A program made the position numbers and the translations under genes. Shown here one piece after another: positions 4,799 to 64,000 of a stretch of 64,000 nucleotides of DNA; position 1 is the stretch's first letter, and each line of letters begins with the position of its first letter. Source of the stretch: Candidatus Thorarchaeota archaeon (GTDB lineage Archaea; Asgardarchaeota; Thorarchaeia; Thorarchaeales; Thorarchaeaceae); contig PRDI01000129.1 of assembly GCA_003345595.1 (NCBI GenBank), positions 6,675-70,674 on the forward strand, written 5' to 3'. The notes under the pieces are model-generated. The model was not told the origin of the DNA and ran no database searches. It saw only the letters and a list, made by a program, of their open reading frames with translations.

Positions 4799-5605
4799 AT
4801 GAACATCGAGAAAGCTGTTGCTTTCGTGACGGCCAGAGGCAATCCAATCGAGATTGCTCGAATGTCATCCATACTATGGAATCAGAAGAGCAGCCGTTCA
4901 GCGATGACTAGACTTTCCAGGATGCAGAATGAAGATGGAGGATACTCTCTGGAGCAAGGCGGCCCCAGCACAGTCTATGACACGATAAGTGTGATTCCGT
5001 GGCTGGACGACCTGCAACTACGCAGTGGCCCTCTTGTCGATATGGCATTCAGGTTTCTGCTGAAGTATAGACAGACGGACGGAGGTTGGGATGAGGTGGA
5101 TGATCTCAAGGGGACAAACGCTCCGCCGTTTCTGATTCTTGGAGAAACAGAAACTAGACCATGGCTGACCGCATGCTGTGCCCACTGGTTTGTTCGCTTT
5201 GGTCGTGCCCAGCCGCTTGATGCCAATGGACGCCCAATGGACTTCCTGCTCAAATCTTGGGAAACACCGGGAAGACTGAAAGGGCATCTTCGGGCAACTT
5301 GGCATGCTCTAGTCCTATTCGGATACCACCCGGGGCAGGATTCTGGCGAGTACAAGGAAACCTTGACCGCGATCGAAAGAGAGCTTGCCCCCGACATTTG
5401 GGAAGGGTCTAGCCTAGCATGCTTACTGTGTTGCTTCAGAGATGCGGGACTACTAGGGGACCACCCACTCGTGAAGAGAGCACTGGACGAACTAGCCAGA
5501 AAGCAGCGTCCCGACGGGAGCTGGTCTTCTGAAGGCGGCGAGAAGTTCGCTGTGAGCGCCACGATTGAAGCGCTACGCGTGCTCAAGCACTATGGCAGAG
5601 TCTAG
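4799..5605 (+). CDS. prenyltransferase/squalene-oxidase-repeat (alpha-alpha toroid) protein
   Basis: QW-like repeats QNEDGGY, QTDGGW, QRPDGSW. Confidence 0.75.
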   Translation: MNIEKAVAFVTARGNPIEIARMSSILWNQKSSRSAMTRLSRMQNEDGGYSLEQGGPSTVYDTISVIPWLDDLQLRSGPLVDMAFRFLLKYRQTDGGWDEVDDLKGTNAPPFLILGETETRPWLTACCAHWFVRFGRAQPLDANGRPMDFLLKSWETPGRLKGHLRATWHALVLFGYHPGQDSGEYKETLTAIERELAPDIWEGSSLACLLCCFRDAGLLGDHPLVKRALDELARKQRPDGSWSSEGGEKFAVSATIEALRVLKHYGRV

Positions 5606-6170: not shown

Positions 6171-6284
6171 AGGACTGCTGTGAGTCTGTATCCACGGTCA
6201 GTCTTGTTCTGACATCGAGGTTCATGAACAGACCAAACAGGAGGGTCATGTTCATCTAGGTAAAGCAACTGACTTTGCTTGACT

Positions 6285-6908
6285 ATGTTGTTTCTTGTTT
6301 CTGTCCTAGGGATGATGGCCGCGGTCCCAATTCACTTCTTGTCGGTCGAACACTCGAAACTGGAGGAAAGGTACGGGCAAGAGAAGGGAAGAACGGCTGG
6401 GAACATACTGGGCATGATATCGGGATGGAGTTTCTTCAGTTTCTGGGTGGGAATATGGATATCCTCACAGCCGAGGTTTAGCATCCCGGTTCTTCCTGAA
6501 TTCGTTGTGATTATCTCGATTAGTGGCCTGGCAATCCCCGTGGTCCACATCGTCCTTGGGCTTCCTCTCCTCTTCGTTGGAGCTTGGTTCGGGATTGCAG
6601 GCGTCAAGGAGATCACGCTCAAAGCCTCCGAAACTCATAGATCCGAGATAATCATAAAGACAGGGGTCTACTCGAATGTCAGACACCCGCAATATCTAGG
6701 CGGCATTGTTTCTCACTTGGGAGTCACGCTCCTCCTGTGTGCTTGGTATGCTCTTCTTGTGACGCCACTGATTGTTTCACTGAACTATGCAGTTTCTTGG
6801 AAAGAAGAGAGGGAGCTTGCGAGGGAGTACGGCAACGAATACAGAGAGTACCAGAGGAGCGTGCCGATGATGGTGCCCCGAATCCGTGGTCACAAAGCAG
6901 GTCGCTGA
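6285..6908 (+). CDS. isoprenylcysteine carboxyl methyltransferase / PEMT-family membrane methyltransferase
   Basis: TGVYSNVRHPQYLG and EERELAREYGNEYREYQRSVP motifs with several TM segments. Confidence 0.88.
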   Translation: MLFLVSVLGMMAAVPIHFLSVEHSKLEERYGQEKGRTAGNILGMISGWSFFSFWVGIWISSQPRFSIPVLPEFVVIISISGLAIPVVHIVLGLPLLFVGAWFGIAGVKEITLKASETHRSEIIIKTGVYSNVRHPQYLGGIVSHLGVTLLLCAWYALLVTPLIVSLNYAVSWKEERELAREYGNEYREYQRSVPMMVPRIRGHKAGR

Positions 6909-23598: not shown

Positions 23599-24798
23599 TC
23601 ATCTCTCAGATTGTAGGTTCTTGAGTTCCTCTATGACTGCCGGCACAACCTCAAACAGGTCGCCGACTATTCCGAAGTCTGCAATCTCGAATATCGGCGC
23701 CTCGGGGTCCTTGTTTACTGCAACTATAACGTCACTTGAGCTCATGCCGATCCTATGCTGGATCGCCCCAGATATACCCAAGGCAAAGTAGAGCTTGGGG
23801 CATACCGTGCGTCCAGACTGCCCGACCTGTTGCGATGGGGGTAGCCAACCAGCGTCCACAACCGGCCTAGAGCCACCGACTGCCGCGTCGAGCAGCTTGG
23901 CCAATTCTGTGGGAAGTGTAAGGTTGGCCGGGTCTTTTATTCCCCGTCCGCTGCAGACAATGACATCGGCTGTGTCAATCGGCTTCATGCCTTCGGCAAG
24001 CTCTTTCACTCTATTCACGACCCTAGTCCGTATCTGAACTGGGTTGATCTTCACCTCAACCTTCTCAATGGTACCCTTCCGAGAAACGTCCCGCTCCCTC
24101 GGTTTGAAGACATTCGGCCGGACAGTTGACATCTGAGGTCTCGTGTATGGGCAGAGGATCTCGGCCATGATGTTCCCTCCGAATGCAGGGCGAATCTGCA
24201 CAAGCTGTCGCTTGTCATCGATTTCAAGACCAGTACAGTCCGCGGTGAGCCCAAGGCCAAGCCGAGCCGCCACGCGAGGAGCAAGGTCTCTTCCGTTGCC
24301 TGTCGCACCGAACAGTACGATTGCCGGCTTGCGAGGAGCAATCAAAGACGTGACTGCAATAGTGTACGCATCTGTCGTGTAATCAGCAAAGGCCTTGTCA
24401 TCCACTACGAGAACCTTGTCAGCTCCTTGCTGAATCAACGACTCCGCGTAACTGGATGTGTCTGATCCAATGAGCACAGCTACGACCTTCTCGCGGAGAT
24501 TGTCGGCAAGGACACGCGCCTTGGTCACTAGCTCATAGGCGACGCTCCGGACTCTTCCCTCAGCAGTCTCGCATACAACCCAGACGTCCTTGTACTGAGC
24601 AATCTTGTCCTTGTCCACAGCCTTCCTCTCGATCTTTATGGCATTCACAGGGCACACTTCTTGGCAGGAGCCACAGAGAACACACTTGTCAAAGTCGAAA
24701 CGTACCTTATTGCCGTCCTTGGTAATGGCCCCGAAGTTGCAGACCTTTGGGCACAGCATACAGCCAGTGCATTTCTCTTTGTCATAGATCAGTACCAT
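23599..24798 (-). CDS. etfA: electron transfer flavoprotein alpha subunit with N-terminal 2[4Fe-4S] ferredoxin domain
   Basis: CTGCMLCPKVC and CVLCGSCQEVCP; GLTADCT, RPAFGGN, QVGQSG, GISGAIQH. Confidence 0.95.
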   Translation of the reverse strand: MVLIYDKEKCTGCMLCPKVCNFGAITKDGNKVRFDFDKCVLCGSCQEVCPVNAIKIERKAVDKDKIAQYKDVWVVCETAEGRVRSVAYELVTKARVLADNLREKVVAVLIGSDTSSYAESLIQQGADKVLVVDDKAFADYTTDAYTIAVTSLIAPRKPAIVLFGATGNGRDLAPRVAARLGLGLTADCTGLEIDDKRQLVQIRPAFGGNIMAEILCPYTRPQMSTVRPNVFKPRERDVSRKGTIEKVEVKINPVQIRTRVVNRVKELAEGMKPIDTADVIVCSGRGIKDPANLTLPTELAKLLDAAVGGSRPVVDAGWLPPSQQVGQSGRTVCPKLYFALGISGAIQHRIGMSSSDVIVAVNKDPEAPIFEIADFGIVGDLFEVVPAVIEELKNLQSER

Positions 24799-24801
24799 TC
24801 T

Positions 24802-25590
24802 CTAGATCGCCCCCTTTGATGCAAGGAACTCAACAAGTTTCTTTGCTGCGGCCTTCGGGTCGGTTCCCTCTATCTTGATGCCGCCTTTCCTCCTCTCAGG
24901 TGCGAACACTTTCCTGACTGTCGTTGGTGACCCCTTGAGTCCAATTGAGTCTGGACTAATGCCCAGCGTCGTTACGGTCACTTCTTCGAGAGGCTTCTTC
25001 TTTGCCTTCATGATGCCCATGATGTTGGGGAGTCTGGGCTCGTTCAGACCCTTTGTGGCGGTCAGCAGTGCAGGCAGCTTCACTCTCACCACTTCATAGC
25101 CCTCATCAGTCCCGCGATGCACGACCACGAACTTACCGTCCTCCTCGACCTCAAGGTGGCGTACATAACAGACCTGAGGAATACCAAGGAGCTCAGCAAT
25201 CTCCGGACCCACCTGTGCGGTATCACCATCTATGGCTTGCTTTCCACATATGACCAAGTCATACTCCATCTTCTTGATCTGTTCAGATAGAGTGCGAGCG
25301 GTCGCCCAGGTGTCCGCACCTGCGAACGCTCTATCAGTGAGGAGAATCGCCTTGTCTGCGCCCATGGCCAGCGCCTTCAGCAGTACTTCCTTGGCTTGCG
25401 GGGGTCCCATCGTTACGACCGTGACCTCACCGCCGAGCTTCTCCTTAAGCTGAATCGCCGCCTCAACTGCGTACTCGTCGAATGGATTCAGAATGCTGGG
25501 CACTCCTTCTCGGATGAGCGTGCCGGTTTCAGGGTTGATACGAACCTCAGCAACCTCAGGAACTTGCTTGACAGGGACTATGACCTTCAT
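24802..25590 (-). CDS. etfB: electron transfer flavoprotein beta subunit
   Basis: MKVIVPVKQVPE, NPFDEYA, GKQAIDGDTAQVG. Confidence 0.95.
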   Translation of the reverse strand: MKVIVPVKQVPEVAEVRINPETGTLIREGVPSILNPFDEYAVEAAIQLKEKLGGEVTVVTMGPPQAKEVLLKALAMGADKAILLTDRAFAGADTWATARTLSEQIKKMEYDLVICGKQAIDGDTAQVGPEIAELLGIPQVCYVRHLEVEEDGKFVVVHRGTDEGYEVVRVKLPALLTATKGLNEPRLPNIMGIMKAKKKPLEEVTVTTLGISPDSIGLKGSPTTVRKVFAPERRKGGIKIEGTDPKAAAKKLVEFLASKGAI

Positions 25591-25690
25591 GAACGTACAC
25601 CCCGAGGTGTCCACGTTGTTCGGCTCGCACGGGTAGTTCGTATCATTATAAGCAATGCGTACGAGGAACTGTCAGCCGGCCAGTAGTGTC

Positions 25691-25741
25691 CCTTACGTAG
25701 GCGGACCCTTTCAAGGAGGTGCGAGAGCAGGCCTTACGTAA
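25691..25741. promoter_or_regulatory. direct repeat CCTTACGTA (x2) between the divergent etfB and DPM2-like promoters
   Basis: Copies at 25691 and 25732; TATA-like boxes near 25646 (-) and 25745 (+). Confidence 0.35.
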
Positions 25742-25803
25742 TCCTTTTATGAGAGCTTCGGCGGATAACCAGCCAATTGCTACTAAGAAGGTAGTGGACA
25801 CTA

Positions 25804-26181
25804 ATGGGCAAAGAGAAAGGTATTGGCATACTCATATTCATCCTCGCATTCCTCGTGTTGATTTACTACACGTGGGGTCTTGTAATCCTGCAGAACCCAT
25901 GGTTTGGACCAGCTGTTCAGAACTGGGTAGTTGCCACTTTTGGACCAGGGATATGGAGAGACATCTTCCTCCCGGACCCGATGTTCCTCATCATCCTTCC
26001 CGTCTGGCTTGCCGCCGTGCTGATTGCAGTCATCGCTATGTGGATTGGTTGGACTATGATCACCACACCAGCTCCTGAGCCACTCGAAGACTTCGATTTC
26101 GAAGAGGAGAAGGTGGCCGAGGGTAAGAAGGCTGAGGAGAAGAAGCCTGAAGAGAAGAAACCCGAGGAAAAGAAGAAGTAG
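25804..26181 (+). CDS. DPM2/PIG-P-like two-TM membrane protein with charged tail
   Basis: GIGILIFILAFLVLIYYTWGLVIL...IFLPDPMFLIILPVWLAAVLIAVIAMWIGWTM fits the DPM2 pattern (YYT, FLP, P) as recalled; TTPAP archaeal-type tail. Confidence 0.65.
   Translation: MGKEKGIGILIFILAFLVLIYYTWGLVILQNPWFGPAVQNWVVATFGPGIWRDIFLPDPMFLIILPVWLAAVLIAVIAMWIGWTMITTPAPEPLEDFDFEEEKVAEGKKAEEKKPEEKKPEEKKK
26125..26178 (+). repeat. imperfect 15-bp tandem repeat encoding KK(A/P)EE x3
   Basis: aagaaggctgaggag aagaagcctgaagag aagaaacccgaggaa aagaagaag. Confidence 0.8.
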
Positions 26182-26217
26182 AACGCTTCAAGAGAATAAC
26201 CCAAGTCACTACCACAG

Positions 26218-26252
26218 GAGAGCGGACCGCGTGGTCCCTCTCACCTTATTTT
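26218..26252 (+). terminator. stem-loop followed by a T-rich tract after the DPM2-like gene
   Basis: GAGAG-C-GGACC gcgt GGTCC-CTCTC, then accttatttt, between convergent genes. Confidence 0.5.
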
Positions 26253-26348
26253 CTGTTGCACAACAAGAAACTGCGATATCGCAGCCGCTCTATCTTGCTC
26301 GGATACAGCGTAAATCGCGCTTTGTATGGAACCTGTATGTCTACTGAC

Positions 26349-27707
26349 TCACACCTTGTCTACCGCTTCTAGAATCAACTTGACACCCATCTGGGATAGC
26401 TTGTCTGCCGTGTCTTGAGACCGCCCTTCTGCAAAACACCGCCACAGGGGCTCAGTACCTGATGGCCTCATGAGCACCCAACCTTCGTCATAGAGGAGCT
26501 TCACCCCGTCTAGTGTGACTCTGTTCTGCCCCTCGGTAAGGCGGAGCAGCGCATCAAGGATCTGATTCCTCTTCTCTGGAGGAACAGGGACCTTCGTCTT
26601 CGTGCTTGCATAGTGCGGGAGTTGTGAAACTAGCTCAGACAGCGTTTTGCCCTCCAAGGCCAGCATCTCAACGGTCTGTGCCGCGGTCATTGCTCCATCG
26701 CGAACAGGTTGATGTGGAGGATAGAAGACGCCCCCGTTCTCCTCACCCCCGAGTTCGCCACCTATCTCCTTCAGTTTGTGCGAAACCACGACGCTTCCCA
26801 CTTCAGTCCACACAATGCGGGCTCCAGCCTCTCGGGCAACATCCTCAATCAGCCTTCCACTGCTGACAGGCGTCACAAGTGTGGATCCTCTCTTCTTGGG
26901 CAGCACACGGGCGGCTATTAGTGCAAACGACTGGTCGCCCCAAAGAACCTGACCTTTCTCATCGACAAATGTTGCCCTGTCAGCATCGCCGTCATGTGCA
27001 ATCCCAACATCCGCTCCTATGGCGACCACTGCACGACGGAGAGATTCGAGATTCTCGGGGAGAGGCTCCGGGTTGCGACCAGGAAAAGCGCCATCCAGCT
27101 GCGCGTTGAGCGATATCACCTTGCATCCAAGCTCCCTCATGAGACGCGGTGTGACCAAGGAACCTACACTGTTCGCCCCGTCAACGACAACTGTAAGCTT
27201 CCTCTTCTGTATCGCTTCGACACCAACATGGGACTTCACTGCGTCTATGAACTGGTCTATTGCGGAGTCGTATGTTCTGACAGTCCCTATTCTATCCCAT
27301 CCAACATTCGTAAAGCGCCTTCCGAAGTAGACATCCTCTATGCGTAATTCGGTTTCTCTCGAAACCTCAATACCGTCTGGCCCCACGACCTTTATTCCGT
27401 TGAACTCCGGGGGATTATGCGAAGCTGTAACGACGACGCCAGCCGCGCATCCTAGTTTCGGCACGACGAACTGAAGAGTTGGAGTCGGTGCCATGCCCAC
27501 ATCAACCACTGAACAACCAGTGGCCAAAAGGGCAGAAGTCACGGCCCTCGTGAACATCTCGCCACCCATCCGGGAGTCTCGAGCAGTGGCAACCAGACCC
27601 GGCCCCGAGATTGTCCCGACAGCCTTGCCAAGATTGAGTGCCATGTCAACGGTCAGACTTTGGTTGATGAGACCCCGGATGCCATTGGTCCCGAAGAGAC
27701 GCCCCAT
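26349..27707 (-). CDS. glmM: phosphoglucosamine mutase / phosphomannomutase (alpha-D-phosphohexomutase)
   Basis: LFGTNGIRG, TASHNP, DGDADR, GGEENGG, RPSGTEP. Confidence 0.9.
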   Translation of the reverse strand: MGRLFGTNGIRGLINQSLTVDMALNLGKAVGTISGPGLVATARDSRMGGEMFTRAVTSALLATGCSVVDVGMAPTPTLQFVVPKLGCAAGVVVTASHNPPEFNGIKVVGPDGIEVSRETELRIEDVYFGRRFTNVGWDRIGTVRTYDSAIDQFIDAVKSHVGVEAIQKRKLTVVVDGANSVGSLVTPRLMRELGCKVISLNAQLDGAFPGRNPEPLPENLESLRRAVVAIGADVGIAHDGDADRATFVDEKGQVLWGDQSFALIAARVLPKKRGSTLVTPVSSGRLIEDVAREAGARIVWTEVGSVVVSHKLKEIGGELGGEENGGVFYPPHQPVRDGAMTAAQTVEMLALEGKTLSELVSQLPHYASTKTKVPVPPEKRNQILDALLRLTEGQNRVTLDGVKLLYDEGWVLMRPSGTEPLWRCFAEGRSQDTADKLSQMGVKLILEAVDKV

Positions 27708-27784
27708 CTGTGTTCACCAAATCAGATGTCCCCATAGGCGATGACTTAAGAGTATCGTCAGTTCCGTGTCGAGCTGAAGTCAAT

Positions 27785-28300
27785 ATGCCACTCTTTAGAC
27801 GTAAAGCAGACACTGAATATGAGCAGGCTGCAAAGCTGTTGATTGATGGAAATTCCCGCGAAGCCATTGACATGCTACGGCAGCTCATCTTGAAACACCC
27901 TAGGCATACTAACGCAATGGTGTCCCTGGCTGTTGCACTCATTGAACAGCAGGAAAGACCGGAAAAGGATAGCCCACTCACGAGGGAAGCCTTGGGTCTG
28001 CTCGATAAGGCCGCGACTCTAGCTCCTAAGGACGCTGTGCCACTTTTCAACAAGGGGGTATGTCTAAGAGATCTTGGCATGCTTGAGGATGCGTTAGTCT
28101 GCTTTCAAGCGGCGCTCGGTATTGAAAAGAAACTCCCATTGGCCATTCTCCACATGGCGGAAGTCAACTACGAACTCGGTAGATGGGAGAAATCAATCGA
28201 ACTCGCTAGGCTTGCGCTGATGAGAGACCCCGGTCTGGAAGGTTCCATGGAATGGGTGCGCGATGCAGTGAGCAAAGCCGCTGGTCAGAGCAGACCCTGA
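27785..28300 (+). CDS. tetratricopeptide repeat protein
   Basis: TPR patterns LFNKGVCLRDLGMLEDALVCFQAAL, HMAEVNYELGRWEKSI. Confidence 0.85.
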   Translation: MPLFRRKADTEYEQAAKLLIDGNSREAIDMLRQLILKHPRHTNAMVSLAVALIEQQERPEKDSPLTREALGLLDKAATLAPKDAVPLFNKGVCLRDLGMLEDALVCFQAALGIEKKLPLAILHMAEVNYELGRWEKSIELARLALMRDPGLEGSMEWVRDAVSKAAGQSRP

Positions 28301-28403
28301 AACGCATCTGTCACACGACCGTGACGAAACGTTTAAGTTAACACTCTAGTGGGTCACCCCAATCCGAGTGGTCACGGCCATCTCAACCTATTACGGTGAT
28401 TAC

Positions 28404-28814
28404 ATGTCACAGAAAGGAGTTCCGACATATCGCGGACACGAGCTCGAGGCCCTTGCCAAGATGAGCATGGACGAGCTGATAGAGCTTCTTCCATCACGCA
28501 GGAGAAGGACCCTGAAGCGAGGGCTGCCTCCCAGACAAAAGAAACTCTTGATCAAGCTCAGGAATGCACGAAAGGCTCAGAAGAAGGGCAAAGAACTCAT
28601 CGTGAAGACCCATTGCCGTGACATGGTTATACTTCCCGAGATGGTCGACCTGACAGTAGCCGTGCATAATGGTAAGGATTTCGCTAGGATCAAGATAATC
28701 CCGCAGATGATTGGACACGTCCTTGGAGAGTTTGCCCCTCCAACCAAGAAGGTTTCCCATGGCAACCCAGGCATTGGTGCAACCAAGTCATCATCATTCG
28801 TACCGCTGAAGTAA
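28404..28814 (+). CDS. rps19: 30S ribosomal protein uS19 (archaeal S19P)
   Basis: YRGHEL...LPSRRRRTLKRG...KTHCRDMVILPEMV...HNGK...MIGHVLGEF...HGNPGIGATKSSSFVPLK; TTTAAG box near 28332. Confidence 0.97.
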   Translation: MSQKGVPTYRGHELEALAKMSMDELIELLPSRRRRTLKRGLPPRQKKLLIKLRNARKAQKKGKELIVKTHCRDMVILPEMVDLTVAVHNGKDFARIKIIPQMIGHVLGEFAPPTKKVSHGNPGIGATKSSSFVPLK

Positions 28815-28960
28815 GTGCGCTTCTTTCCGAACATGCATACTCGTGACGCCTGCGTCAATCACAGTGCGTCCTTGTCCTGTTCTCTGTAGAGAAATCTTGT
28901 GTCAATTGTGGGAATGGTTCTTAGGAAAGACACCAACCAAGGACGGAACGGAGAGAGCAA

Positions 28961-29428
28961 GTGAAGACAGCTCTGATTGTATACGAAAACAAATATGGCA
29001 ACACGAAACGCTTGGCAGGTGCAATTGCTGAAGGCATTCGCCAGGCAGGAAACATCGAATGCAAGGTTGCGGCAGTTGGAGAGGTACAACCTGATGAGCT
29101 CCCCGAGTACGACACAGTTCTGTTTGGTTGTCCAAACCACATGCAGGGGCCTAGCCGCGGAATCATGAGTTTCATCGATCGCGCAGCTATTGTTGACCTG
29201 AGCGGCAAGACCGGAGCAGCTTTTGACACATACATGGGCGGCAACAAGGGAATAGCAGTGACTAAACTGGAGCAGAAGATACGGCAGAAACTTCCCGGCA
29301 TGCGGCTAGTTATCCCGGGCCTATCAGCAGAGGTCAGGAGCAGAACCGGGCCTTTGGTTGAAGAAGAGATCCCGAGGGCTAGTCAGTTTGGCAAGATCAT
29401 CGGCGAAGCACTGCTCAGACGAGCATAA
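28961..29428 (+). CDS. flavodoxin-family protein
   Basis: YENKYGNTKRLAGAIAEG, FGCPNH, AAFDTY. Confidence 0.88.
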   Translation: MKTALIVYENKYGNTKRLAGAIAEGIRQAGNIECKVAAVGEVQPDELPEYDTVLFGCPNHMQGPSRGIMSFIDRAAIVDLSGKTGAAFDTYMGGNKGIAVTKLEQKIRQKLPGMRLVIPGLSAEVRSRTGPLVEEEIPRASQFGKIIGEALLRRA

Positions 29429-29523
29429 CCGTTCGTGAAATCCTCCGTCATTATACTCATGCGGTTTGCACAGAGATAGCGTTCTGTTCGCAGGCACTGT
29501 GAGGCCCGTTTCGTCAGCGAAGT

Positions 29524-55778: not shown

Positions 55779-56768
55779 CTATTTCGGACAATCCACTTCT
55801 CCGAGTATCTTCGAGACAATACGATCTACGCTCAGTCCCTCGAGCTCGGCCTCCGGTTTCATGACGAGTCTGTGATTCAGGGCTTGAACACAGAGCTTCC
55901 GTACGTCCTCTGGGATCACATAATCACGCCCCAACATTGCCGCTCTCGTCTTTGATGCACCCATAAGAACGAGAGAAGCACGAGGAGAGCCACCAAGGAG
56001 TATCTGAGGGTCATTACGGGTACGAACTACGATGTCCCGGATGTAGTTGATTACATCCTCATCCAGGTACACCGTTTTACATGCATTCTGCATCCGGACG
56101 ATGACTGAGGGGTCAGCAAGCACTCTCAGATCTGTCGCCTCACCTTGATGCTTCCTCCGAATCACCTCAGCCTCTTCACTGGGCGTTGGATAGTCCAGTA
56201 CCAGTCGGAACATGAAACGGTCAAGCTGTGCTTCTGGCAGAGGATAGGTACCCTCTTGCTCGACCGGGTTTTGAGTGGCAATTATGAGAAACGGCAGGGG
56301 GAGTTTCCTTGTCACGCCCTCAGTCGAAACCTGTCGTTCCTCCATAACCTCCAACAATGCACTCTGAGACTTCGGGGGACACCGGTTGATTTCATCTGCG
56401 AGCACGAGGTTGGCAAAGACAGGACCCTTGCGGAACCAGAACTCTCCGCTCTTCTGATTGAAGACGTTGCTTCCGAGAATGTCACTCGGGAGAGTATCGA
56501 CGGTCAACTGAATCCGCTTAAAGGCACAACCCAGAATCGATGCGAAAGTACGGGCCATGTAGGTCTTCGCAAGGCCGGGGACTCCCTCCAACACGACATG
56601 TCCATTGGAGAGGAATGCAACCATCGTGTCTCGTAGGATTTCAATCTTGCCAACGATCACTCTTTGACACTCGCGTATTATCTCTGAAGTCAGGTCATGA
56701 ACCTCTGCTATGCTCATGGCCTGTGAAGTGTCGACTTGACTCACTTCCGTTGTTTCTTCTACAGTCAT
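55779..56768 (-). CDS. moxR: MoxR-family AAA+ ATPase
   Basis: LEGVPGLAKT, RIQLTVDTLPSD, DEINR, ATQNPVEQEGTYPLPEAQLDRF, SPRA. Confidence 0.96.
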   Translation of the reverse strand: MTVEETTEVSQVDTSQAMSIAEVHDLTSEIIRECQRVIVGKIEILRDTMVAFLSNGHVVLEGVPGLAKTYMARTFASILGCAFKRIQLTVDTLPSDILGSNVFNQKSGEFWFRKGPVFANLVLADEINRCPPKSQSALLEVMEERQVSTEGVTRKLPLPFLIIATQNPVEQEGTYPLPEAQLDRFMFRLVLDYPTPSEEAEVIRRKHQGEATDLRVLADPSVIVRMQNACKTVYLDEDVINYIRDIVVRTRNDPQILLGGSPRASLVLMGASKTRAAMLGRDYVIPEDVRKLCVQALNHRLVMKPEAELEGLSVDRIVSKILGEVDCPK

Positions 56769-56778
56769 TACTTCTATC

Positions 56779-58185
56779 TCACCTTCTTGATTCAACTAAG
56801 AGCGATGATATATTGTGCATCCAGAAGAAGAGAGTCATCAGCTCGCTCTCTCTGATCTTCATCTTGGGTCTCGAGGATATCTCCTCTATCCTCTCAATCG
56901 TCTTGAAGAACTTGGTTTCATCTAGGCTCGGGTCCTTGTAGCGCATGAGTTCCCACAGCTTCCTTGCATCGTATTCTGACCACATGTGTTTGCGTTTCAG
57001 ATCGCGCTTGAGCTTCCTGTACAGCATCTTCACCACACGTGCATAGTTGCCCTCTGTCCGATAGTAAGTCATGCGCTCGCTGAAGTATGTCTGTCCGCGC
57101 CTTAGGAATACGTCAGACACACTCCTGACCTCTGGCTTCTTCATGTCTGGCAGATACTTCTTGAGACCTATAACAGTCAGTAAGGGATACAACGGAGCAA
57201 AGAAGGGCATCGTACTAAGCCATAGAGCGCGCCCTAGATAGAACCCATAGAAGAACTCTGGTGACTGCCAAGGCACGGCAAGCAGGTTCTCGCAGAAGAC
57301 AACGGGCCATGATGCGTTATATTGAGCCAACCAGTTGATTACATTCGTGCCGAACTGGCGGTTTTGACCGAGGGAGAACATGGTGTTGATGAACACACTT
57401 GGGTCGCTCATCGCGACCAGTCTTCCAGTCGGAGAACCCTGACCACCGAAAGACAGGTCCAGCGCTCCAACGACTGGCATTGAGCCATTCCACTCGTCGC
57501 CATTCGGGTAGGGATTCGGATCTGTTATGTTCGTTTCACACCAAGACCGGGTTGTGGTCCAGGCCACACCTGCCTGACCAAGGACACATAGGGGGTTGAT
57601 CGCCGTTGCCCAGTTCAAATAGAGCTCGTTCACTCCGGCAGTGAGTGCACCCCCATCTAGACCAGTCCTGAAACCACCATTTGCCCTCTTGATCACAGGC
57701 AGCTTCGGGCTCTTAGCATACGAATCTAGGTCGAGGATGACGCCGCCCGTAAAGGAAAGAAACCCTTGCGTCGGAATCGGACCCCCTGACCATGAGCCGG
57801 TGATGAGACTGTTCAATACTTGGAAAGAAGTGTTGGCAGTGCCGAAGTCATCGGCGATGAGAACCCCTCCCCCTGCCATCAGGTGATCGAACAGAGTGAG
57901 CACTGCATCTAATGTGAAGTAGCTGACAGGACCCATGACTACTAGAATTGCAGCACCTTCATACCTCGATATGACGCTCATTGACGACTGGATGGCTAGA
58001 GTGGTGTATCCAGTGTTCTCGATTTCCAGCCGGAAGTCGCTCATCCCGTTCCATTGCTCATTGTAGATGCTGAAATCCTGCGTGTAGGTCTCGCTCACAC
58101 CGAAGACCGTTCCGCCCGCCAGAATGGCAACTGGAAACCAGCTTGCGAAGAACAACAGGATTTGAGCCCATTCCTTCCAGCCCAT
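56779..58185 (-). CDS. DUF4350-like membrane-anchored protein
   Basis: FSIYNEQWNGMSDF, GGGVLIADDFG, SDPSVFINTM, N.QF..N; TM and C-terminal helical domain. Confidence 0.8.
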   Translation of the reverse strand: MGWKEWAQILLFFASWFPVAILAGGTVFGVSETYTQDFSIYNEQWNGMSDFRLEIENTGYTTLAIQSSMSVISRYEGAAILVVMGPVSYFTLDAVLTLFDHLMAGGGVLIADDFGTANTSFQVLNSLITGSWSGGPIPTQGFLSFTGGVILDLDSYAKSPKLPVIKRANGGFRTGLDGGALTAGVNELYLNWATAINPLCVLGQAGVAWTTTRSWCETNITDPNPYPNGDEWNGSMPVVGALDLSFGGQGSPTGRLVAMSDPSVFINTMFSLGQNRQFGTNVINWLAQYNASWPVVFCENLLAVPWQSPEFFYGFYLGRALWLSTMPFFAPLYPLLTVIGLKKYLPDMKKPEVRSVSDVFLRRGQTYFSERMTYYRTEGNYARVVKMLYRKLKRDLKRKHMWSEYDARKLWELMRYKDPSLDETKFFKTIERIEEISSRPKMKIRESELMTLFFWMHNISSLLVESRR

Positions 58186-58209
58186 CTTAGTTCCACCTTG
58201 TGCCTGCGC

Positions 58210-58665
58210 CTAGACAGCCGTTGTGATTGGACTGCCCTCAATCTTGGGGTAAAGGTCAGTGAAGACCCTGATCGCAGACTCATAGCGCTCGCGTGTCATT
58301 TCGTGTTTCGAGAACCGAGCCTCCTCATAGATGGTTGCGAACTCCTCCGCGGCAGTACTGTCCAGAGGCATTATCTTAAGAACGCGCTCAAGATACTCAC
58401 GTGCGGTTTCTGACACCAGACGTTCAGAGCCTGTCTTCGAACCACACATCTGCTCAAATGTGCGATAGGCAAGGGTGATGGCGGCAGCATATTTGCCTGC
58501 ATCAGCCAGCTTCTTTATGTTACGCAGCTTACTAGGGATGTCAACTGCTTTTGTTCCCTCCGGGCGGCGGAACCTGCCTTTGACAAGATAGAGATACAGG
58601 AACACGACAATGATCGCGCCGGTCAGTGCGACACCCGGTAGAATGATGTCAATCAGTCCTTGCAT
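58210..58665 (-). CDS. DUF4129 protein
   Basis: N-terminal TM; AITLAY, SETAREY, IYEEARFSKH. Confidence 0.85.
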   Translation of the reverse strand: MQGLIDIILPGVALTGAIIVVFLYLYLVKGRFRRPEGTKAVDIPSKLRNIKKLADAGKYAAAITLAYRTFEQMCGSKTGSERLVSETAREYLERVLKIMPLDSTAAEEFATIYEEARFSKHEMTRERYESAIRVFTDLYPKIEGSPITTAV

Positions 58666-58668
58666 TGG

Positions 58669-61600
58669 TCACCACCTGTTAGTAACATGAGAGTACGATG
58701 TTCTGATTCTCAAATGAAATCTAGACCACCTCGAGGTACTTCCATTGTGTGGTCTGTATCGTCGTATGACTATGATACCTATGATCGCTTCAGCCACGAT
58801 TGCGCCTGCCCATACCATGATCAGAATCAAGCTCAGAGAAGGGCCAGTCGCCATCTGTATAGCAACCGTGAATCTGCTCGACTCAATACTGGAAGTTTCA
58901 AATGAAACAAGCGTGAAATAGTACTCGTAGAACCCCTCGGGAGCTGACTCCAGAGCAATGTACGTGATACGGCCATTGTCATCAGTGATGCGAGTCTCGG
59001 TGGAGGTGCCGTTCAAATGGATGATGACGTCCCTGCCCACAATCGGATAGTGAGTCGCCGAATCATCAGTCAGCACACAGATGATAGTCAGTGAGTCCCC
59101 GGGGTTTATGCGCGTTGGAGTCCCAGGATTGAAGACCACGTTCGTGAACACGTGGATGGAATCGGTCACATTTCGAGTAGAACCGTCAACATAGCCGTAA
59201 CCCGCGTATGAAACGGAGAGCGTGAATAGACCACTGCCTAGACTCCAGTCGAGTGGAATCTCTCGTTCGAACGTGTTTCCATCTGGCGAATTGACCAGTA
59301 GCGTATCGATATTGATGCTTCCGAGGCTGAGGACCACTGACCCGACGATCACGCCTCCTTCTGTGTCTTCAAGGCGAATGAACACTGTGAAGGTTTCTCC
59401 GGGCATGATGTCACCCTGCGGAGTCACTTGAACCAGAACTCGCGTGCCCAAGTGAACTTCAATCGTCCATGAGCTGGGCGTCCCTTCTACAACATAGTTG
59501 CCATAATCAATGCCAAGTGTTAGTATGTGTTGACCCAACGACCAACTTGAGGGGACTTCGAGACTGACAGAGAACCTACCATTCAACCCTGTGGATACGG
59601 TATCCCAGGTCCCCGTCGGGTCGACAATTATCGCCAAAGGCACGCCTGGTGCGTTCCCGCCACCGTGGGTGACGTAGCCGCTTACTGTCAGGTAGCTGCC
59701 TCTTGTCACAATGACCACTGCCTGAGGGTCCAAGTGCAGTGTCACTCGGTCGAATACAGCCACCTGCTGCTGGGCTGATACCGGATTCTCGAAACGGTCG
59801 GGACGTGTAAGAAACGCGACATAGTAGGGTACAGTGCCCAGGCGTTGCGTCCAAGGGACTGTGTAGACAAACTGGAAGCTGCCTGTCGGATTTGTGATGG
59901 TCAGGTTGTACAGAATACGCCCATCCCAGATAATTGTCACATCATAGCCAACCATACCGGTGCCATTTCCGAAAGTCAGGTTGCCAGAAATAGTGATGTC
60001 ATCGCCCAAGTAGACTATTGAAACGTCACCAATCGCGGAAAGTGAAACCGGTATGAGCCTGACGTCCACTGTTCTTGTCATGGATTGGCCCGGTGATATG
60101 GACAGGTCAGATGGCGTACAGTTGGCCCAGAACTCGAGGACACCCACGGGAGCAGTCAATTCCACTCCCAGCCCAAACCAACCTGTGTCATCCGTAAGAA
60201 TGGGATAGGGATATACTAGGAAAGTCGCCATGTTGAGGCTGTGCCGGGCCCAGAGAAACACGGGAGCTCCTGCATACGGAGAGCCGTTGTCCAGCGTCAA
60301 TGTGCCAGTGACTGTTATGATACCTTCGATATAGAGCACACTGGGTGTGACATCAAATGACGACCAGACAAGCGACAGCCCACTGACGTTGATGGTTATG
60401 GGGGCAGTGGCAGAGTCTGCGATCCAGGTGACTCCAGATGCATAAAATGCCACGATGTCATGGTCACCAATCGTTGTTGATTGAAGAACAGTCCAGTTGT
60501 AGAGAAAAGAACCATCGGAGGTGGTCTGTGCAGAACCTACAGGAGAGCCATCTATCAGAATTTCAATCCATGCTCCGATCAGAGGCACGTCGGGACCCGT
60601 GAGCTCGTAGTACAAGACTCCTGTGAGCGTGATAATCTGACCGATACTGCAGTTGATCACTCCACCACTGTTGAATCCAATGATTACTGTGATCCATTGC
60701 TGCAGTGTGAGCATCTGATGCACAGACTCTGTACTGGCAATGAGAAGAGAGCCAGAGTAGGTGCCGTACACCTCGATCCCAGTCCAGATGCTGTCACCAG
60801 ACATGCCAGAGTAGGCATATTCGGCGCCACCTGTGGAGTTGGTGGTCACAGTTGCTATCGAGATGTCGGACCCATTGAACCACCAGATTGACACCTGAGC
60901 GTTGTTCACAGGTGTGGAGTTGTGCCCAAATGAGAGCACTACGTAAATCACGACCGTTTCGTTCAGATAAGCTGGGTTTGGGCTCACAGTGACAACAAGA
61001 TCAACTGGATATCTCTGTACAGAAATGGAAAACACAGTGCTTGCATCGCCGGTCAGTGGGTCGACTGTGGTGTAATTGCACTTGAACCAGTACGTGCCAG
61101 CATTGTCAGGCGGAACAGTCAACCAGTAGACGTAACTGAAACCCCCGGTTGAATTTGTGACAATACTTCCTATGAGACTCCAGGTCAGACCCACCTGACG
61201 ATAAATCATGACCGAGCCCCCGACAATGACAGGCGATCCGCCAGTATAAGCGAGAACACCCTGCATACGGATGCTCTGGTCAAGATACACTGAAGATGGG
61301 TAGTACATGGTGAACTTAGTGGTGTACAGGACCAAGTCAATCTCGATGCCGGGCGCAGAAGTTGCATTGCTCCACAGCGGCACACTATTGATGAACTCGG
61401 CCCAGATGGTGACGTTGGCTACTCTGTCTTTGTCTACCGAACAAACGTAGTAGAAATCGAAGTAACCAGATGCGTTCGTGAAATAGCCATTGAACACATC
61501 GATGGTCCCATTATTCCAGTCCCAATGTACAGAAACCTGTTGCCCTATCAGGGGAGTGCCATTGTCCTGATATGTCAGACGCCCCCATACCCAGACGGTT

Positions 61601-64000
61601 TCGTTGAGATGATAAGAGGTACTGTTCGTAGCTGTCGTAAGTACGAACTGGTAGAGTATGAGTGTGGCGGTCCTATTCGCGGACTCCGCGTCGCTCCAGA
61701 GAGGATTCGAACTGGTGTAGCTCGCCCATACATAGACTGCTCCCAGCGCATCCCTCATTGAGTAATTGTACCGGAAAGCGAACGAACCTCCGCTGTCTGT
61801 TGTCTTGGGATAGAAATAGGTACTCGTGCTGTTCCTATAGGCCACAGTGACATTGGCCCCGGTGAGTGGGATTGTGCCATCCTCGAAGTAGAGAATCCCC
61901 GAGAACACCATTACGTCGTTCAAGTGATACTCTGGTGCATCAGTTGCGGCTAAGAGTATGACTTGGTATATCTGGAGTGTCAATGATGGCGTGAGGCCTG
62001 CAGTCGCATTATCATAAAGCCGCGTAGGAGACGTGAAGGCGACTTGAACATCGACAATGCCTGTATCGTCAGAGAGCACCGAGCAGTCGTAGTAGAAGCT
62101 ATACCAACCAGTGATGTTCGTTGTCACAGGGAACGTGGGCACAGGAAGAGTGCCATTAGTCCAGTACAAATAGACCAAGCGACCAGACCAAGGACTCCCA
62201 TTCTCAAACTGTAGGCGGCCCCAGATGTGGACTGTTTCGTTCAGATAGTAGCTTGTGCCATTGGAGAAGATAGTGAGAGTCGTATTGTAGTTGATGACTT
62301 GGACGATCAGTTGGACGGACACGTTGCTGGCAAGTGCTGGATCGGTGGAAACAAATTCCGTCCATACTGGGACACTACCCAGCTCGTGCCCAAAGGGTAT
62401 GGTCATACTGTACTCGTAGAGAAAGGTCGTTGGACTGGTCATAACCACACTGAGGTTGTGCGGTCCTGTGCTGTTATCCCACCAGACCGTGACGGGAGCG
62501 TCCGTCAGATTCAAACCCAACTCAGGCAACGAAACGGTACCCGAAATGGTCAAGGACTCCAGCAGATGCACTGGATTTGGAACCACTTGAATTGATACTT
62601 CGACAATCCAACGTTGCACCATGATAGTCATGTTCACCGATCGAGAGCTGGCGTAACTCGGGGAGAGTGACTCGAACTCGGTCCAGTAGGTGACCATGCC
62701 CTCAAACCCCACAGGCACTGTATAGACAAACTCGTAATACCCGTCCGATTCTGTGATGCTGCTCCCTATCAGTACCGCCGAGATCCCATTGTACCACCAG
62801 ACATCTATCGTCTGGTCAGCAATCCCGGTAGTGTTTGCAGTGTCAATCAGATAGCCACTGATGACAATGTCTTGGAGCATGTGTACAACGTCGGGTGTCT
62901 TGGGCAAGGAGTCTATACTCAATGAGGTTTGTCCGGTCCGTATCGTGATTGGCACGGCTTGACTCCAGTTCCCGGACACCAATGCCATACCCGACGTCCA
63001 ATTGACTTGAGCATAAACGACACCGGGTGGAAAATCGTTGGGGATGGAGTAGGTGGAGCGAAAACCGCCAGTAGAGTTGGTTGCTGCGGTGTTCACAAGA
63101 GTACCGTTGAGAAAGACACCAATGGTTTCACCGACGATCAATGTGCCGTTGAGCAACTGGGCCACACCATCATAGGTGAGTGTCCAACCACGATATGCAA
63201 TAGTTGGATAGACGGTCAGTGTGAACCCTACTGTACCCCACACGGTCACAGTGGAATTGTCTGCCGATCGCGCCGGTAGCAGGACTGGAAACCCACTATC
63301 CCACTCCCCTGCATACTGGCACCATATCTTATGGTTCCCGGTGGTCATTCTCACGAGGTCGAGCGGGTCCACGGTGATATTGAGATTGTAGCGGCCGTCG
63401 GCCCCAATGGTGGCGTTCCCAATCCACCCTTCGTCCCACATTATCTGCATCTGATCATTGTTCAGTCTGGTCCCATTGACCGGACTCCCTCCAACCGTCA
63501 TCACTCCATGAACATGGAGCGTGTCCTGCCAGTGCGTAGTGTAGTTGTCAAGACCAAGTTTCATGTCCAAATCGATTGTTTCACTCGGAAGGAAATCCGA
63601 TAGGACCGCTTTCTCGGGTGAAGTTGAGGGAGTCGGCACAGCAACAGCGTAGACAGAAGTGTAGTTGGAAACAGCGAAGCCTGGCCCGATCCATGTTGCA
63701 GAGATAATGTGGAGCCCAGTCACTGATCCGTCAGGAAAGGCGTAAGTTATGTTGGCTAGGGGTAAGGAGGAACCCATCTCTATCGTGGAGTTGCCCATGT
63801 ACAGACTAGCTGTTTCGTCGCGAAAGTAGACGACCTCTGGAGTTGTGACAGGTATGCCTTCATACAGCAGAAGAGCGCTCAAATTGAAATCCACACCTAT
63901 CATAGCCCACTGAGGAGGTCCTACATAGAGCTGGACGCTGCCTTGGCTTGTGTTTTCGGGTATCTCTCCACCACCCATGTTTCCGGGTAGAGGCATGGGA
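58669..64000 (-). CDS. giant Ig-like-repeat cell-surface glycoprotein with C-terminal TM anchor (5' end outside window)
   Basis: More than 1775 aa open to the window edge; repeats of about 100-110 aa (P..VHL.E.V.I.G.L...G.P..G..V.+.W.N...T...G.F...Y); many NxS/T sequons. Confidence 0.9.
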   Translation of the reverse strand, partial: PMPLPGNMGGGEIPENTSQGSVQLYVGPPQWAMIGVDFNLSALLLYEGIPVTTPEVVYFRDETASLYMGNSTIEMGSSLPLANITYAFPDGSVTGLHIISATWIGPGFAVSNYTSVYAVAVPTPSTSPEKAVLSDFLPSETIDLDMKLGLDNYTTHWQDTLHVHGVMTVGGSPVNGTRLNNDQMQIMWDEGWIGNATIGADGRYNLNITVDPLDLVRMTTGNHKIWCQYAGEWDSGFPVLLPARSADNSTVTVWGTVGFTLTVYPTIAYRGWTLTYDGVAQLLNGTLIVGETIGVFLNGTLVNTAATNSTGGFRSTYSIPNDFPPGVVYAQVNWTSGMALVSGNWSQAVPITIRTGQTSLSIDSLPKTPDVVHMLQDIVISGYLIDTANTTGIADQTIDVWWYNGISAVLIGSSITESDGYYEFVYTVPVGFEGMVTYWTEFESLSPSYASSRSVNMTIMVQRWIVEVSIQVVPNPVHLLESLTISGTVSLPELGLNLTDAPVTVWWDNSTGPHNLSVVMTSPTTFLYEYSMTIPFGHELGSVPVWTEFVSTDPALASNVSVQLIVQVINYNTTLTIFSNGTSYYLNETVHIWGRLQFENGSPWSGRLVYLYWTNGTLPVPTFPVTTNITGWYSFYYDCSVLSDDTGIVDVQVAFTSPTRLYDNATAGLTPSLTLQIYQVILLAATDAPEYHLNDVMVFSGILYFEDGTIPLTGANVTVAYRNSTSTYFYPKTTDSGGSFAFRYNYSMRDALGAVYVWASYTSSNPLWSDAESANRTATLILYQFVLTTATNSTSYHLNETVWVWGRLTYQDNGTPLIGQQVSVHWDWNNGTIDVFNGYFTNASGYFDFYYVCSVDKDRVANVTIWAEFINSVPLWSNATSAPGIEIDLVLYTTKFTMYYPSSVYLDQSIRMQGVLAYTGGSPVIVGGSVMIYRQVGLTWSLIGSIVTNSTGGFSYVYWLTVPPDNAGTYWFKCNYTTVDPLTGDASTVFSISVQRYPVDLVVTVSPNPAYLNETVVIYVVLSFGHNSTPVNNAQVSIWWFNGSDISIATVTTNSTGGAEYAYSGMSGDSIWTGIEVYGTYSGSLLIASTESVHQMLTLQQWITVIIGFNSGGVINCSIGQIITLTGVLYYELTGPDVPLIGAWIEILIDGSPVGSAQTTSDGSFLYNWTVLQSTTIGDHDIVAFYASGVTWIADSATAPITINVSGLSLVWSSFDVTPSVLYIEGIITVTGTLTLDNGSPYAGAPVFLWARHSLNMATFLVYPYPILTDDTGWFGLGVELTAPVGVLEFWANCTPSDLSISPGQSMTRTVDVRLIPVSLSAIGDVSIVYLGDDITISGNLTFGNGTGMVGYDVTIIWDGRILYNLTITNPTGSFQFVYTVPWTQRLGTVPYYVAFLTRPDRFENPVSAQQQVAVFDRVTLHLDPQAVVIVTRGSYLTVSGYVTHGGGNAPGVPLAIIVDPTGTWDTVSTGLNGRFSVSLEVPSSWSLGQHILTLGIDYGNYVVEGTPSSWTIEVHLGTRVLVQVTPQGDIMPGETFTVFIRLEDTEGGVIVGSVVLSLGSINIDTLLVNSPDGNTFEREIPLDWSLGSGLFTLSVSYAGYGYVDGSTRNVTDSIHVFTNVVFNPGTPTRINPGDSLTIICVLTDDSATHYPIVGRDVIIHLNGTSTETRITDDNGRITYIALESAPEGFYEYYFTLVSFETSSIESSRFTVAIQMATGPSLSLILIMVWAGAIVAEAIIGIIVIRRYRPHNGSTSRWSRFHLRIRTSYSHVTNRW

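Follow-up and report, generated by a model that had tools for sequence, protein, structure and literature searches.

In a 64,000-nucleotide stretch of a Candidatus Thorarchaeota contig (PRDI01000129.1; the whole stretch is called the window hereafter), a short gene on the forward strand encodes a membrane protein of two predicted helices, here called the hairpin protein. It is flanked by genes for EtfA and EtfB on one side and by genes for a phosphohexomutase, a tetratricopeptide-repeat (TPR) protein and the ribosomal protein uS19 on the other (Table 1). The hairpin protein belongs to a widespread archaeal family with a specific profile similarity to DPM2 and PIG-P, two small eukaryotic glycosylation subunits. 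A first-pass annotation had drawn attention to this protein as a DPM2-like candidate. The open reading frame (ORF) with the features named there is present, and its translation is the protein of 125 residues that had been described; the motif elements could also be recovered in full, whereas the spacings given between them are one residue off in places (the gap between L73 and M79, for example, comprises five residues and not four).

Table 1. Features of the hairpin gene, its neighbours in the window and the related clusters at other loci. Positions are those of the window unless a locus is named; AF2, AlphaFold2; TM, transmembrane.
Feature	Position	Strand	Basis or remark
Hairpin gene (DPM2/PIG-P-like, 125 aa)	25804..26181	+	ORF and translation; stop codon 26179-26181
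TM helix 1, residues 7-28	25822..25887	+	Hydropathy and charge count; AF2 helix 3-28; conservation
Loop, residues 29-58, with two short helices (AF2 35-45 and 50-55)	25888..25977	+	
TM helix 2, residues 59-86, with the family signature MWIGWTM at its end	25978..26061	+	AF2 helix 59-87
Juxtamembrane motif TTPAPEPLEDFDF, residues 87-99, invariant	26062..26100	+	Invariant columns; wider family: TTPPPxP[IL]E
Low-complexity Glu/Lys/Pro tail, residues 100-125	26101..26178	+	Low AF2 confidence; columns variable among relatives
TTTTAT, candidate archaeal TATA-like box, 54-59 nt upstream of the ATG	25745..25750	+	Read by eye from the sequence
T-rich stretch TTATTTTCTGTTG 3' of the stop codon, candidate archaeal terminator	26247..26259	+	Read by eye from the sequence
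GlmM, archaeal phosphoglucosamine mutase (452 aa), convergent neighbour (context only)	26349..27707	-	TIGR03990; PGM_PMM I-IV
EtfA (N-terminal 2x[4Fe-4S] domain) and EtfB, divergent upstream (context only)	23599..25614	-	Pfam
TPR protein and ribosomal protein uS19, Thorarchaeota synteny block (context only)	27710..28814	+	Pfam
Hermod-like cluster spans	L038:2365-7830, L048:3835-7843, L050:3816-7812, L046:1-3093, L027:45-1046		L027 shows NTP_transferase only

The hairpin protein opens with a Lys-rich start (MGKEK) followed by a first helix that closes with IYYTWGLVIL, a loop of 30 residues with IFLPDP at its end and a second helix (FLIILPVWLAAVLIAVIAMWIGWTM), after which TTPAPEPLEDFDFEEE leads into a charged tail rich in Glu, Lys and Pro. 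Hydropathy and charge counts showed that both hydrophobic segments are free of charged residues, and residues 87-125 contain 10 Lys plus Arg and 14 Asp plus Glu. An AlphaFold2 model, for which an alignment of 56 relatives served as input, consists of two long helices and two short helices within the loop (Table 1); its mean predicted local distance difference test (pLDDT) score was 84.7, with values above 90 over residues 1-90 and of 53-64 over residues 91-125. The presence of one two-helix TM hairpin in a small protein corresponds to the architecture of DPM2, while the loop and the tail exceed the 75-position DPM2 model. The loop is probably extracellular. Judged by their letters, the TTTTAT hexamer and the T-rich run on either side of the gene are possible promoter and terminator elements, both of the archaeal type. 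RNA genes were found neither by an Rfam scan of positions 24500-29500 nor by a tRNA scan of the whole window, and NCBIfam holds no model for the hairpin protein.

That the hairpin gene is more than a chance ORF is indicated by the 133 protein clusters that match its product at E ≤ 0.01 and by the 28 invariant columns in an alignment of 56 Thorarchaeota members (the Thor alignment), among them T87, T88, P89, A90, P91, E92, P93, L94, E95, D96 and F97. An organism or sample is named for 21 of these clusters: 18 were assigned to Thorarchaeota, and one each to a 'Lokiarchaeota archaeon', to Promethearchaeia and to a sediment metagenome. Within helix 1, G8 and Y21 are invariant and Y22, T23 and W24 nearly so in the Thor alignment; within helix 2, G82 is invariant and W80 and I81 are nearly invariant across 85 diverse family members, whose consensus after this helix reads WIGWTMxTTPPPxPxE. 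A search of 1.84 billion representative proteins with the Thor profile returned 191 matches at E ≤ 1e-3. All but one of the 148 newly fetched matches share the same plan or a fragment thereof (the exception, P0228, is a repetitive protein of 606 residues). This plan comprises M-x-K-D-[KQ]-x-x-G, two helices, W-I-G-W-T-M-x-T-T-P-P-P-x-P-[IL]-E and an acidic tail, with a loop that is very variable in length and almost gone in the short-loop members. The window protein fits it in the form M-x-K-[DE]-[KQ]-x-x-G, two helices, W-I-G-[WYF]-T-[ML]-x-T-T-P-x-P and an acidic tail, and comparison of the Thor alignment with an alignment of short-loop archaeal members using hhalign gave a probability of 99.9% (E = 3e-33). 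This comparison supports the earlier placement of the protein in a small archaeal family labelled 'transcriptional regulator family protein', a label that is carried by some of the nearby ESM Atlas clusters; the Atlas neighbours are all archaeal, and with scores of 0.81-0.87 they provide a lead only.

A scan of one genome per species detected 369 relatives, and 79 loci were kept for comparison: L001-L025 from Thorarchaeota and 54 remaining loci (L026-L079) without the Thorarchaeota synteny block. They represent Thorarchaeota, other Asgard archaea (Atabeyarchaeia, Jordarchaeum and Hermodarchaeota), many Bathyarchaeia, Thermoproteota/Methanomethylicia and one Nitrososphaerota bin. In a quick maximum-likelihood tree of 73 members, with 99 usable columns, many unresolved forks and two rows (L009 and L025) that are clearly wrong ORF picks, the sequences are grouped by lineage into Thorarchaeota, Hermod-like, Bathyarchaeia and Methanomethylicia clades, with L028 as sister to the Thorarchaeota clade. 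Such grouping fits vertical descent and suggests that the family was inherited vertically. The family is archaeal and widespread and is not Asgard-specific; the framing of the hairpin as an Asgard signature had to be abandoned, as the family is found equally in Bathyarchaeia, Thermoproteota/Methanomethylicia and a Nitrososphaerota bin.

Among the 24,736 models of Pfam-A, those matched best by the window protein were DPM2 (PF07297; 17.5 bits, E = 0.0051), with residues 55-87 as the best stretch, and PIG-P (PF08510; 15.3 bits, E = 0.018). The profile check that had been proposed for this protein is thus failed by the protein itself, both scores being below the curated gathering cut-offs (27.3 and 39.3 bits, respectively). 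At the level of the family, the resemblance is systematic. At E ≤ 0.01, DPM2 was matched by 41 of the 56 Thorarchaeota members (best E = 4.5e-7) and PIG-P by 15 of them, two other families appearing once each. Leaving out fragments, 111 of the 148 further proteins were scanned against Pfam, and 66 of these distant archaeal members matched DPM2 and/or PIG-P at the same threshold. A curated cut-off was reached by nine of the 111: eight passed that of DPM2 (P0125, P0127, P0135, P0142, P0160, P0163, P0226 and P0240) and three that of PIG-P (P0125 with 39.8 bits, P0127 with 40.8 and P0172 with 40.1). Three of the eight members read from the loci also passed the DPM2 cut-off (L048, 33.4 bits; L073, 32.8; L044, 30.3), so that 12 family members stand above curated cut-offs. 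The DPM2 matches of the distant members often cover the model almost completely (e.g., positions 2-71 of 75) and often take in D-[KQ]-x-x-G, the N-terminal stretch that precedes helix 1. Matches to PIG-P are as common as those to DPM2 in the wider family and often extend past helix 2 into the tail, as in P0125, where residues 5-108 align to model positions 3-101 of 121. Precomputed annotation with PF07297 or PF08510 exists for at least seven of the 133 clusters (seven among the 120 matches listed). The control set consisted of 54 small ORFs from outside the family that likewise encode two or three hydrophobic segments, 51 of them taken from the loci and three from the window; none matched DPM2 or PIG-P and one matched Phage_holin_3_6. 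The resemblance proposed by the first-pass annotation therefore goes beyond generic TM similarity when the family as a whole is considered.

Besides the sub-threshold scores of the window protein itself, several results weigh against kinship with the eukaryotic proteins and against the role proposed below. Sub-threshold matches to Phage_holin_3_6 were detected in 59 of the 111 distant members, the highest with 28.0 bits against a cut-off of 28.4, suggesting that part of the profile signal may reflect hairpin architecture. No eukaryotic protein was present among the 150 matches listed of the 191 returned by the large profile search. Sequence searches of the PDB with the window protein, the Thor profile, a profile of the wider family and P0127 found no chain of DPM2, PIG-P or the Pyrococcus furiosus dolichol-phosphate-mannose (Dol-P-Man) synthase (PfDPMS), and returned only weak matches to V-ATPase subunit e, ACIII, DHHC20, integrin and viral fusion proteins. 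A fold search of the PDB with the AlphaFold2 model gave three matches, all with E > 5 and meaningless. In addition, no tie to DPM2 could be made for the invariant tail motif, and homology to the eukaryotic families rests on the Pfam DPM2 and PIG-P models, which we take to have been built from eukaryotic proteins. A relationship with V-ATPase subunit e was considered and rejected; the phmmer match was weak (E = 0.016-0.026) and was not reproduced by the profile of 56 relatives.

These results would be accommodated if the likeness to DPM2 and PIG-P were convergent, that is, if a short aromatic-rich hairpin with a charged tail scored in this manner while having an unrelated function, and the weak phmmer matches, including that to DHHC20 (E = 0.1), together with the exclusively archaeal Atlas neighbours with scores below 0.9, can be read in the same way. 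Convergence nevertheless appears quite improbable to us in view of the empty control set, the members above curated cut-offs and the frequent near-full spans of the DPM2 model with the region preceding helix 1. The two matched families are, moreover, treated in a published analysis as products of a single duplication: 'DPM2 and PIGP' are named among the duplications 'of archaeal origin' that preceded the last eukaryotic common ancestor in a passage of a 2025 Nature paper (PMC12872463). The archaeal ancestry of DPM2/PIGP is therefore already stated in print, as far as this passage goes, and the link to archaea put forward by the first-pass annotation cannot be claimed as new. Among the matches listed of a literature search on DPM2/PIG-P with archaea or Asgard, neither a free-standing archaeal family nor the tail motif nor partners were described; in one paper that contains both dpm2 and Asgard, the former is just what an instrument is called.

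Altogether, homology of the archaeal family to DPM2/PIG-P is considered probable on the strength of the profiles. In our reading, the family is a true but distant relative of DPM2 and PIG-P, about equally close to each, and the window protein is, as judged by its matches, a relative of both and a strict member of neither Pfam family. The Thorarchaeota members lean to DPM2 and the other members to PIG-P; this pattern of equal closeness with opposite leanings is to be expected of a relative older than the duplication that gave rise to DPM2 and PIG-P. Its invariant tail, variable loop and gene neighbourhoods mark the family as a hitherto undescribed archaeal form of the DPM2/PIG-P type.

With regard to the genomic context, the convergent neighbour had been recognized correctly as a phosphohexomutase and can be specified as an archaeal GlmM, since TIGR03990 matched residues 3-444 with 554.1 bits (equivalog cut-off, 439) and the Pfam domains PGM_PMM_I to IV were all significant. 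The block EtfA-EtfB/hairpin/GlmM/TPR/uS19 is recurrent in Thorarchaeota bins: among the loci L001-L025, EtfB was found in 20, GlmM in 19, the TPR protein in 22 and uS19 in 21. The frequency of GlmM near the hairpin gene in Thorarchaeota, and its presence in the sister locus L028, might suggest that both proteins form a functional pair in which the hairpin anchors hexosamine-phosphate metabolism to the membrane. Such a pairing is very improbable, as the arrangement is not fixed (convergent in the window, on the hairpin's own strand in L028), the two genes do not form one operon and are often 1.5-3.8 kb apart with unrelated genes in between (e.g., a PAS/GAF histidine kinase of 1085 residues in L001 and an acyltransferase in L006), six of the 25 loci (L012, L017, L021, L022, L024 and L025) have no GlmM gene at this place, and conservation of the entire block points to plain synteny. 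Taken alone, the adjacency of GlmM in Thorarchaeota is ordinary lineage-level synteny.

Within the block, EtfA, at 23599..24798 (-), carries an N-terminal double [4Fe-4S] ferredoxin domain, and EtfB is encoded next to it at 24802..25614.

Inspection of the remaining context provided evidence on both sides of a role in glycosylation. Pfam detected no glycosyltransferase (GT2, GT4 or other) and no DPM3-like gene among the 66 ORFs of the window, which counts against such a role and leaves the GT2 (DPM1-like) partner envisaged for the hairpin without a candidate there. A small DPM3-like partner was not found among the conserved small neighbour clusters 8, 18 and 23 either, which comprise zinc-ribbon or other proteins. 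Outside Thorarchaeota, the commonest neighbour is an S-adenosylhomocysteine (SAH) hydrolase gene, which immediately precedes the hairpin gene in the same orientation at 34 of the 54 loci, nearly all of them from Bathyarchaeia; it has no evident link to glycosylation, and the pair looks like an operon without obvious functional logic. The gap between the two genes in Bathyarchaeia is usually ~65-85 nt and reaches ~230 nt in a few loci (e.g., L053:6519-7772).

On the other side, the GlmM gene of the 19 Thorarchaeota loci and of L028 is itself a neighbour that points to glycosylation, and at 17 of the 54 remaining loci a sugar-1-phosphate nucleotidyltransferase is encoded beside the hairpin gene or not far from it. 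In the Hermod-like loci L027, L038, L046, L048 and L050, a gene encoding NTP_transferase and LbH domains stands divergently beside the hairpin gene, and a GT4 gene (best sub-threshold names BshA and MshA) is located ~3 to 4.5 kb from it in L038, L046, L048 and L050 only. Membrane ORFs with DUF1616 were detected in L038, L046 and L048 (L050 was outside the DUF1616 scan), and L038 additionally encodes a UDP-N-acetylglucosamine (UDP-GlcNAc) 2-epimerase. In the Jordarchaeum locus L036, a polysaccharide deacetylase gene is found upstream of the hairpin gene. The closest association is that of the Nitrososphaerota locus (L058:3741-5940), where the hairpin gene ends 31 nt from a convergent gene for a GT2 protein of 244 residues without hydrophobic segments (highest 19-residue Kyte-Doolittle mean, 1.19), which is followed by a DegT/PseC-like aminotransferase gene. 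This GT2 is named polyprenol monophosphomannose synthase at NCBI, its relatives are named dolichol-phosphate mannosyltransferase at JGI, and its best sub-threshold NCBIfam names (PgfS, ArnC, PpgS and AglJ) are all polyprenyl-phosphate sugar synthases. Prediction of a complex between this GT2 and the hairpin of the same locus scored 0.00 in two runs, which were made without control runs and speak neither for nor against binding. It must also be held against a glycosylation role that the neighbourhood counts are not independent events; counted by lineage, some four or five independent associations with enzymes of nucleotide sugars or glycolipids are left, which are suggestive but not proof.

Domain fusions point to other partners as well. 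P0216, P0223 and P0268 carry C-terminal HHH_5/HHH domains of the helix-hairpin-helix (HhH) type, and P0179 carries DUF4332 plus HHH_5, in each case after the acidic tail; longer fused forms did not emerge from a search for them with the profile of the wider family, a negative of little weight as such forms do exist (e.g., P0179, with 289 residues). In one of the 79 loci, on the Thorarchaeota chromosome L012, a separate DUF4332 ORF (L012:7611-7913) lies directly upstream of the hairpin gene. Together with the prevalence of SAH hydrolase and the occurrence of 'transcriptional regulator family protein' among the automatic cluster names, these observations would suit a true DPM2/PIG-P relative that serves as a general anchor or regulator of other cytoplasmic modules, for instance nucleic-acid-binding HhH/DUF4332 proteins, and not as a glycosyltransferase subunit. 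We consider this alternative unlikely, as the fusions are few (four of the 111 members scanned), the DUF4332 neighbour occurs only once, the 'regulator' label is automatic with no supporting test seen, and sugar-nucleotide and glycosyltransferase neighbours recur in several lineages.

Based on the available evidence, the best explanation as a whole, to which we assign a probability of about 0.5, is that the hairpin protein would be a non-catalytic membrane hairpin acting as an accessory subunit or tether for a lipid-directed glycosyltransferase. The hairpin would be the form taken in Thorarchaeota by an old archaeal family that was passed on vertically and is kin to the ancestor of both DPM2 and PIG-P. 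Its two helices are predicted to span the membrane, with the N-terminus and the conserved acidic C-terminal tail facing the cytoplasm, as suggested by the Lys-rich N-terminus and by the HhH domains, which are cytoplasmic modules, at the C-terminus of some relatives. By analogy with DPM2 and PIG-P, the protein most likely lacks catalytic activity and may hold, orient or stabilise a peripheral glycosyltransferase without TM helix, which would transfer the sugar moiety of a nucleotide sugar to a lipid of the membrane. The candidate partners are a DPM1-like GT2 (for polyprenyl-phosphate sugars) or a PIG-A/MshA-like GT4 (with UDP-GlcNAc as donor); the UDP-GlcNAc-related neighbours slightly favour a GT4 and the hairpin-GT2 pair of the Nitrososphaerota locus favours a GT2. 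Docking would probably occur at the invariant TTP(A/P)PxP(L/I)E motif that follows directly on helix 2.

The accessory-subunit role, considered separately, is plausible and still tentative. It appears rather doubtful that the hairpin is the tether of TM-helix-less glycolipid synthases (GT2 or GT4) across TACK and Asgard archaea, with the proline-acidic tail as docking peptide, and a multi-subunit Dol-P-sugar synthase in Asgard archaea, as proposed in the first-pass annotation, can be inferred as a possibility. If the tether reading were true, the split multi-subunit design of Dol-P-Man synthase and of the glycosylphosphatidylinositol (GPI) GlcNAc transferase (GPI-GnT) would be an archaeal heritage and not an invention that came with the endoplasmic reticulum. 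DPM2 and PIG-P are small, poorly understood subunits of two enzymes at the head of the mannose-donor and GPI-anchor pathways of eukaryotes, and their archaeal relatives, placed in simple neighbourhoods and once beside a DPM1-like enzyme without TM helix, may offer an easier system to address the role of the hairpin and the question of whether multi-subunit enzymes of this type preceded eukaryotes. The point is narrower than had been hoped, since the family is not exclusive to Asgard archaea, its ancestry is already in print and its partners are candidates only.

Among the other genes of the window, the 'sequon-rich surface proteins' mentioned in the first-pass annotation correspond to one ORF only, at 58672..63996 (-), which runs off the end of the window. 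It contains 56 N-X-S/T sites in the 1775 residues seen, a density of 3.15 per 100 residues compared with 0.67 over all 66 ORFs, and its Pfam matches are limited to weak ones to CarboxypepD_reg and DUF6795; from its composition, the product is probably a heavily N-glycosylated surface protein. Directly downstream on the same strand, at 55782..58665 (-), a MoxR-type AAA ATPase (AAA_3) and proteins with DUF4350 and DUF4129 are encoded. At 4799..5602 and 6279..6905 the window encodes a protein with prenyltransferase/squalene-cyclase repeats and a PEMT/ICMT-like membrane methyltransferase, respectively.

Various other genes were noted near the hairpin gene at individual loci. On the Atabeyarchaeia chromosome (L026), a Roadblock/LC7 protein (L026:7116-7517) and a eukaryotic-type topoisomerase IB with Topoisom_I_N, Topoisom_I and Topo_C_assoc domains (L026:10688-12199) are encoded less than 4 kb from it, and L012:4009-5478 contains genes for an Rce1-like CAAX protease and a PEMT-like protein. 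At L046:5647-6873, an IS605 OrfB/TnpB-type gene (OrfB_IS605, Cas12f1-like TNB) is located between NIP7-like and ribosomal stalk genes and is absent in the sister loci L048 and L050.

Known systems provide precedents for a hairpin of this kind. Human DPM1 has no TM helices and depends on DPM2 and DPM3, according to the passages of Gandini (2017; PMC5526996) that deal with these subunits, and a proteoarchaeal origin was argued for Dpm1, with the type without TM helix as the possible ancestral one, in the corresponding part of Lombard (2016; PMC4973528). The yeast DPM2 homologue Yil102c-A is described in an excerpt of PMC7728079 as binding both Dpm1 and GPI-GnT. In the AlphaFold3 model of human GPI-GnT, as presented in sections of PMC12182360, PIGP, PIGY and DPM2 each form a V-shaped hairpin of two helices in contact with PIGA, a peripheral GT4, and the orientation of PIGA changes when PIGP is taken out of the model.

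Phage_holin_3_6 (PF07332) is likewise a two-helix hairpin with charged ends and has the sub-threshold matches in the distant members mentioned above; in contrast with a true member of that family, none of the proteins reached the cut-off, only one of the 56 Thorarchaeota members matched, and the neighbourhoods give no hint of phage or lysis functions. The type-III Dol-P-Man synthase of P. furiosus consists of a GT2 fused to two TM hairpins. Its four-helix domain was reported, in the sections of PMC5526996 on topology, to be topologically like DPM2 plus DPM3, with TMH1 and TMH3 resembling human DPM2, and the authors equate the whole with the DPM1/DPM2/DPM3 complex, whereas a 2026 paper from the same group (PMC12992685) stresses, in the part concerned, the limited sequence similarity between type-III and eukaryotic TM domains. 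When the PDB was searched with profiles of the free-standing family, PfDPMS was not among the chains matched, even with the threshold relaxed to E ≤ 10; as its topology is described as equivalent to that of the assembled DPM1/DPM2/DPM3, the enzyme would be the fused counterpart of the split arrangement proposed here.

PIG-P, a hairpin subunit that the GPI GlcNAc transferase cannot do without, ranks second among the Pfam families matched by the window protein. It differs in that the window contains no PIG-A-like GT4 and in the distance of the score from the cut-off, and shares with the archaeal family a hairpin followed by a further part, which is cytoplasmic in PIG-P as far as described in PMC12182360 and corresponds to the conserved, probably cytoplasmic tail of the archaeal proteins; in several archaeal lineages, the neighbours make UDP-GlcNAc precursors. 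With respect to DPM2, the regulatory subunit of Dol-P-Man synthase that is also found with GPI-GnT, the window protein is longer, with its 30-residue loop, the TTPAPEPLEDFDF motif and the charged tail, and has no known DPM1 or DPM3 partner, none being encoded in the window. DPM2 is likewise a small, non-catalytic two-helix hairpin, it ranks first in Pfam for the window protein and for most of the Thorarchaeota members, and several archaeal members pass its cut-off.

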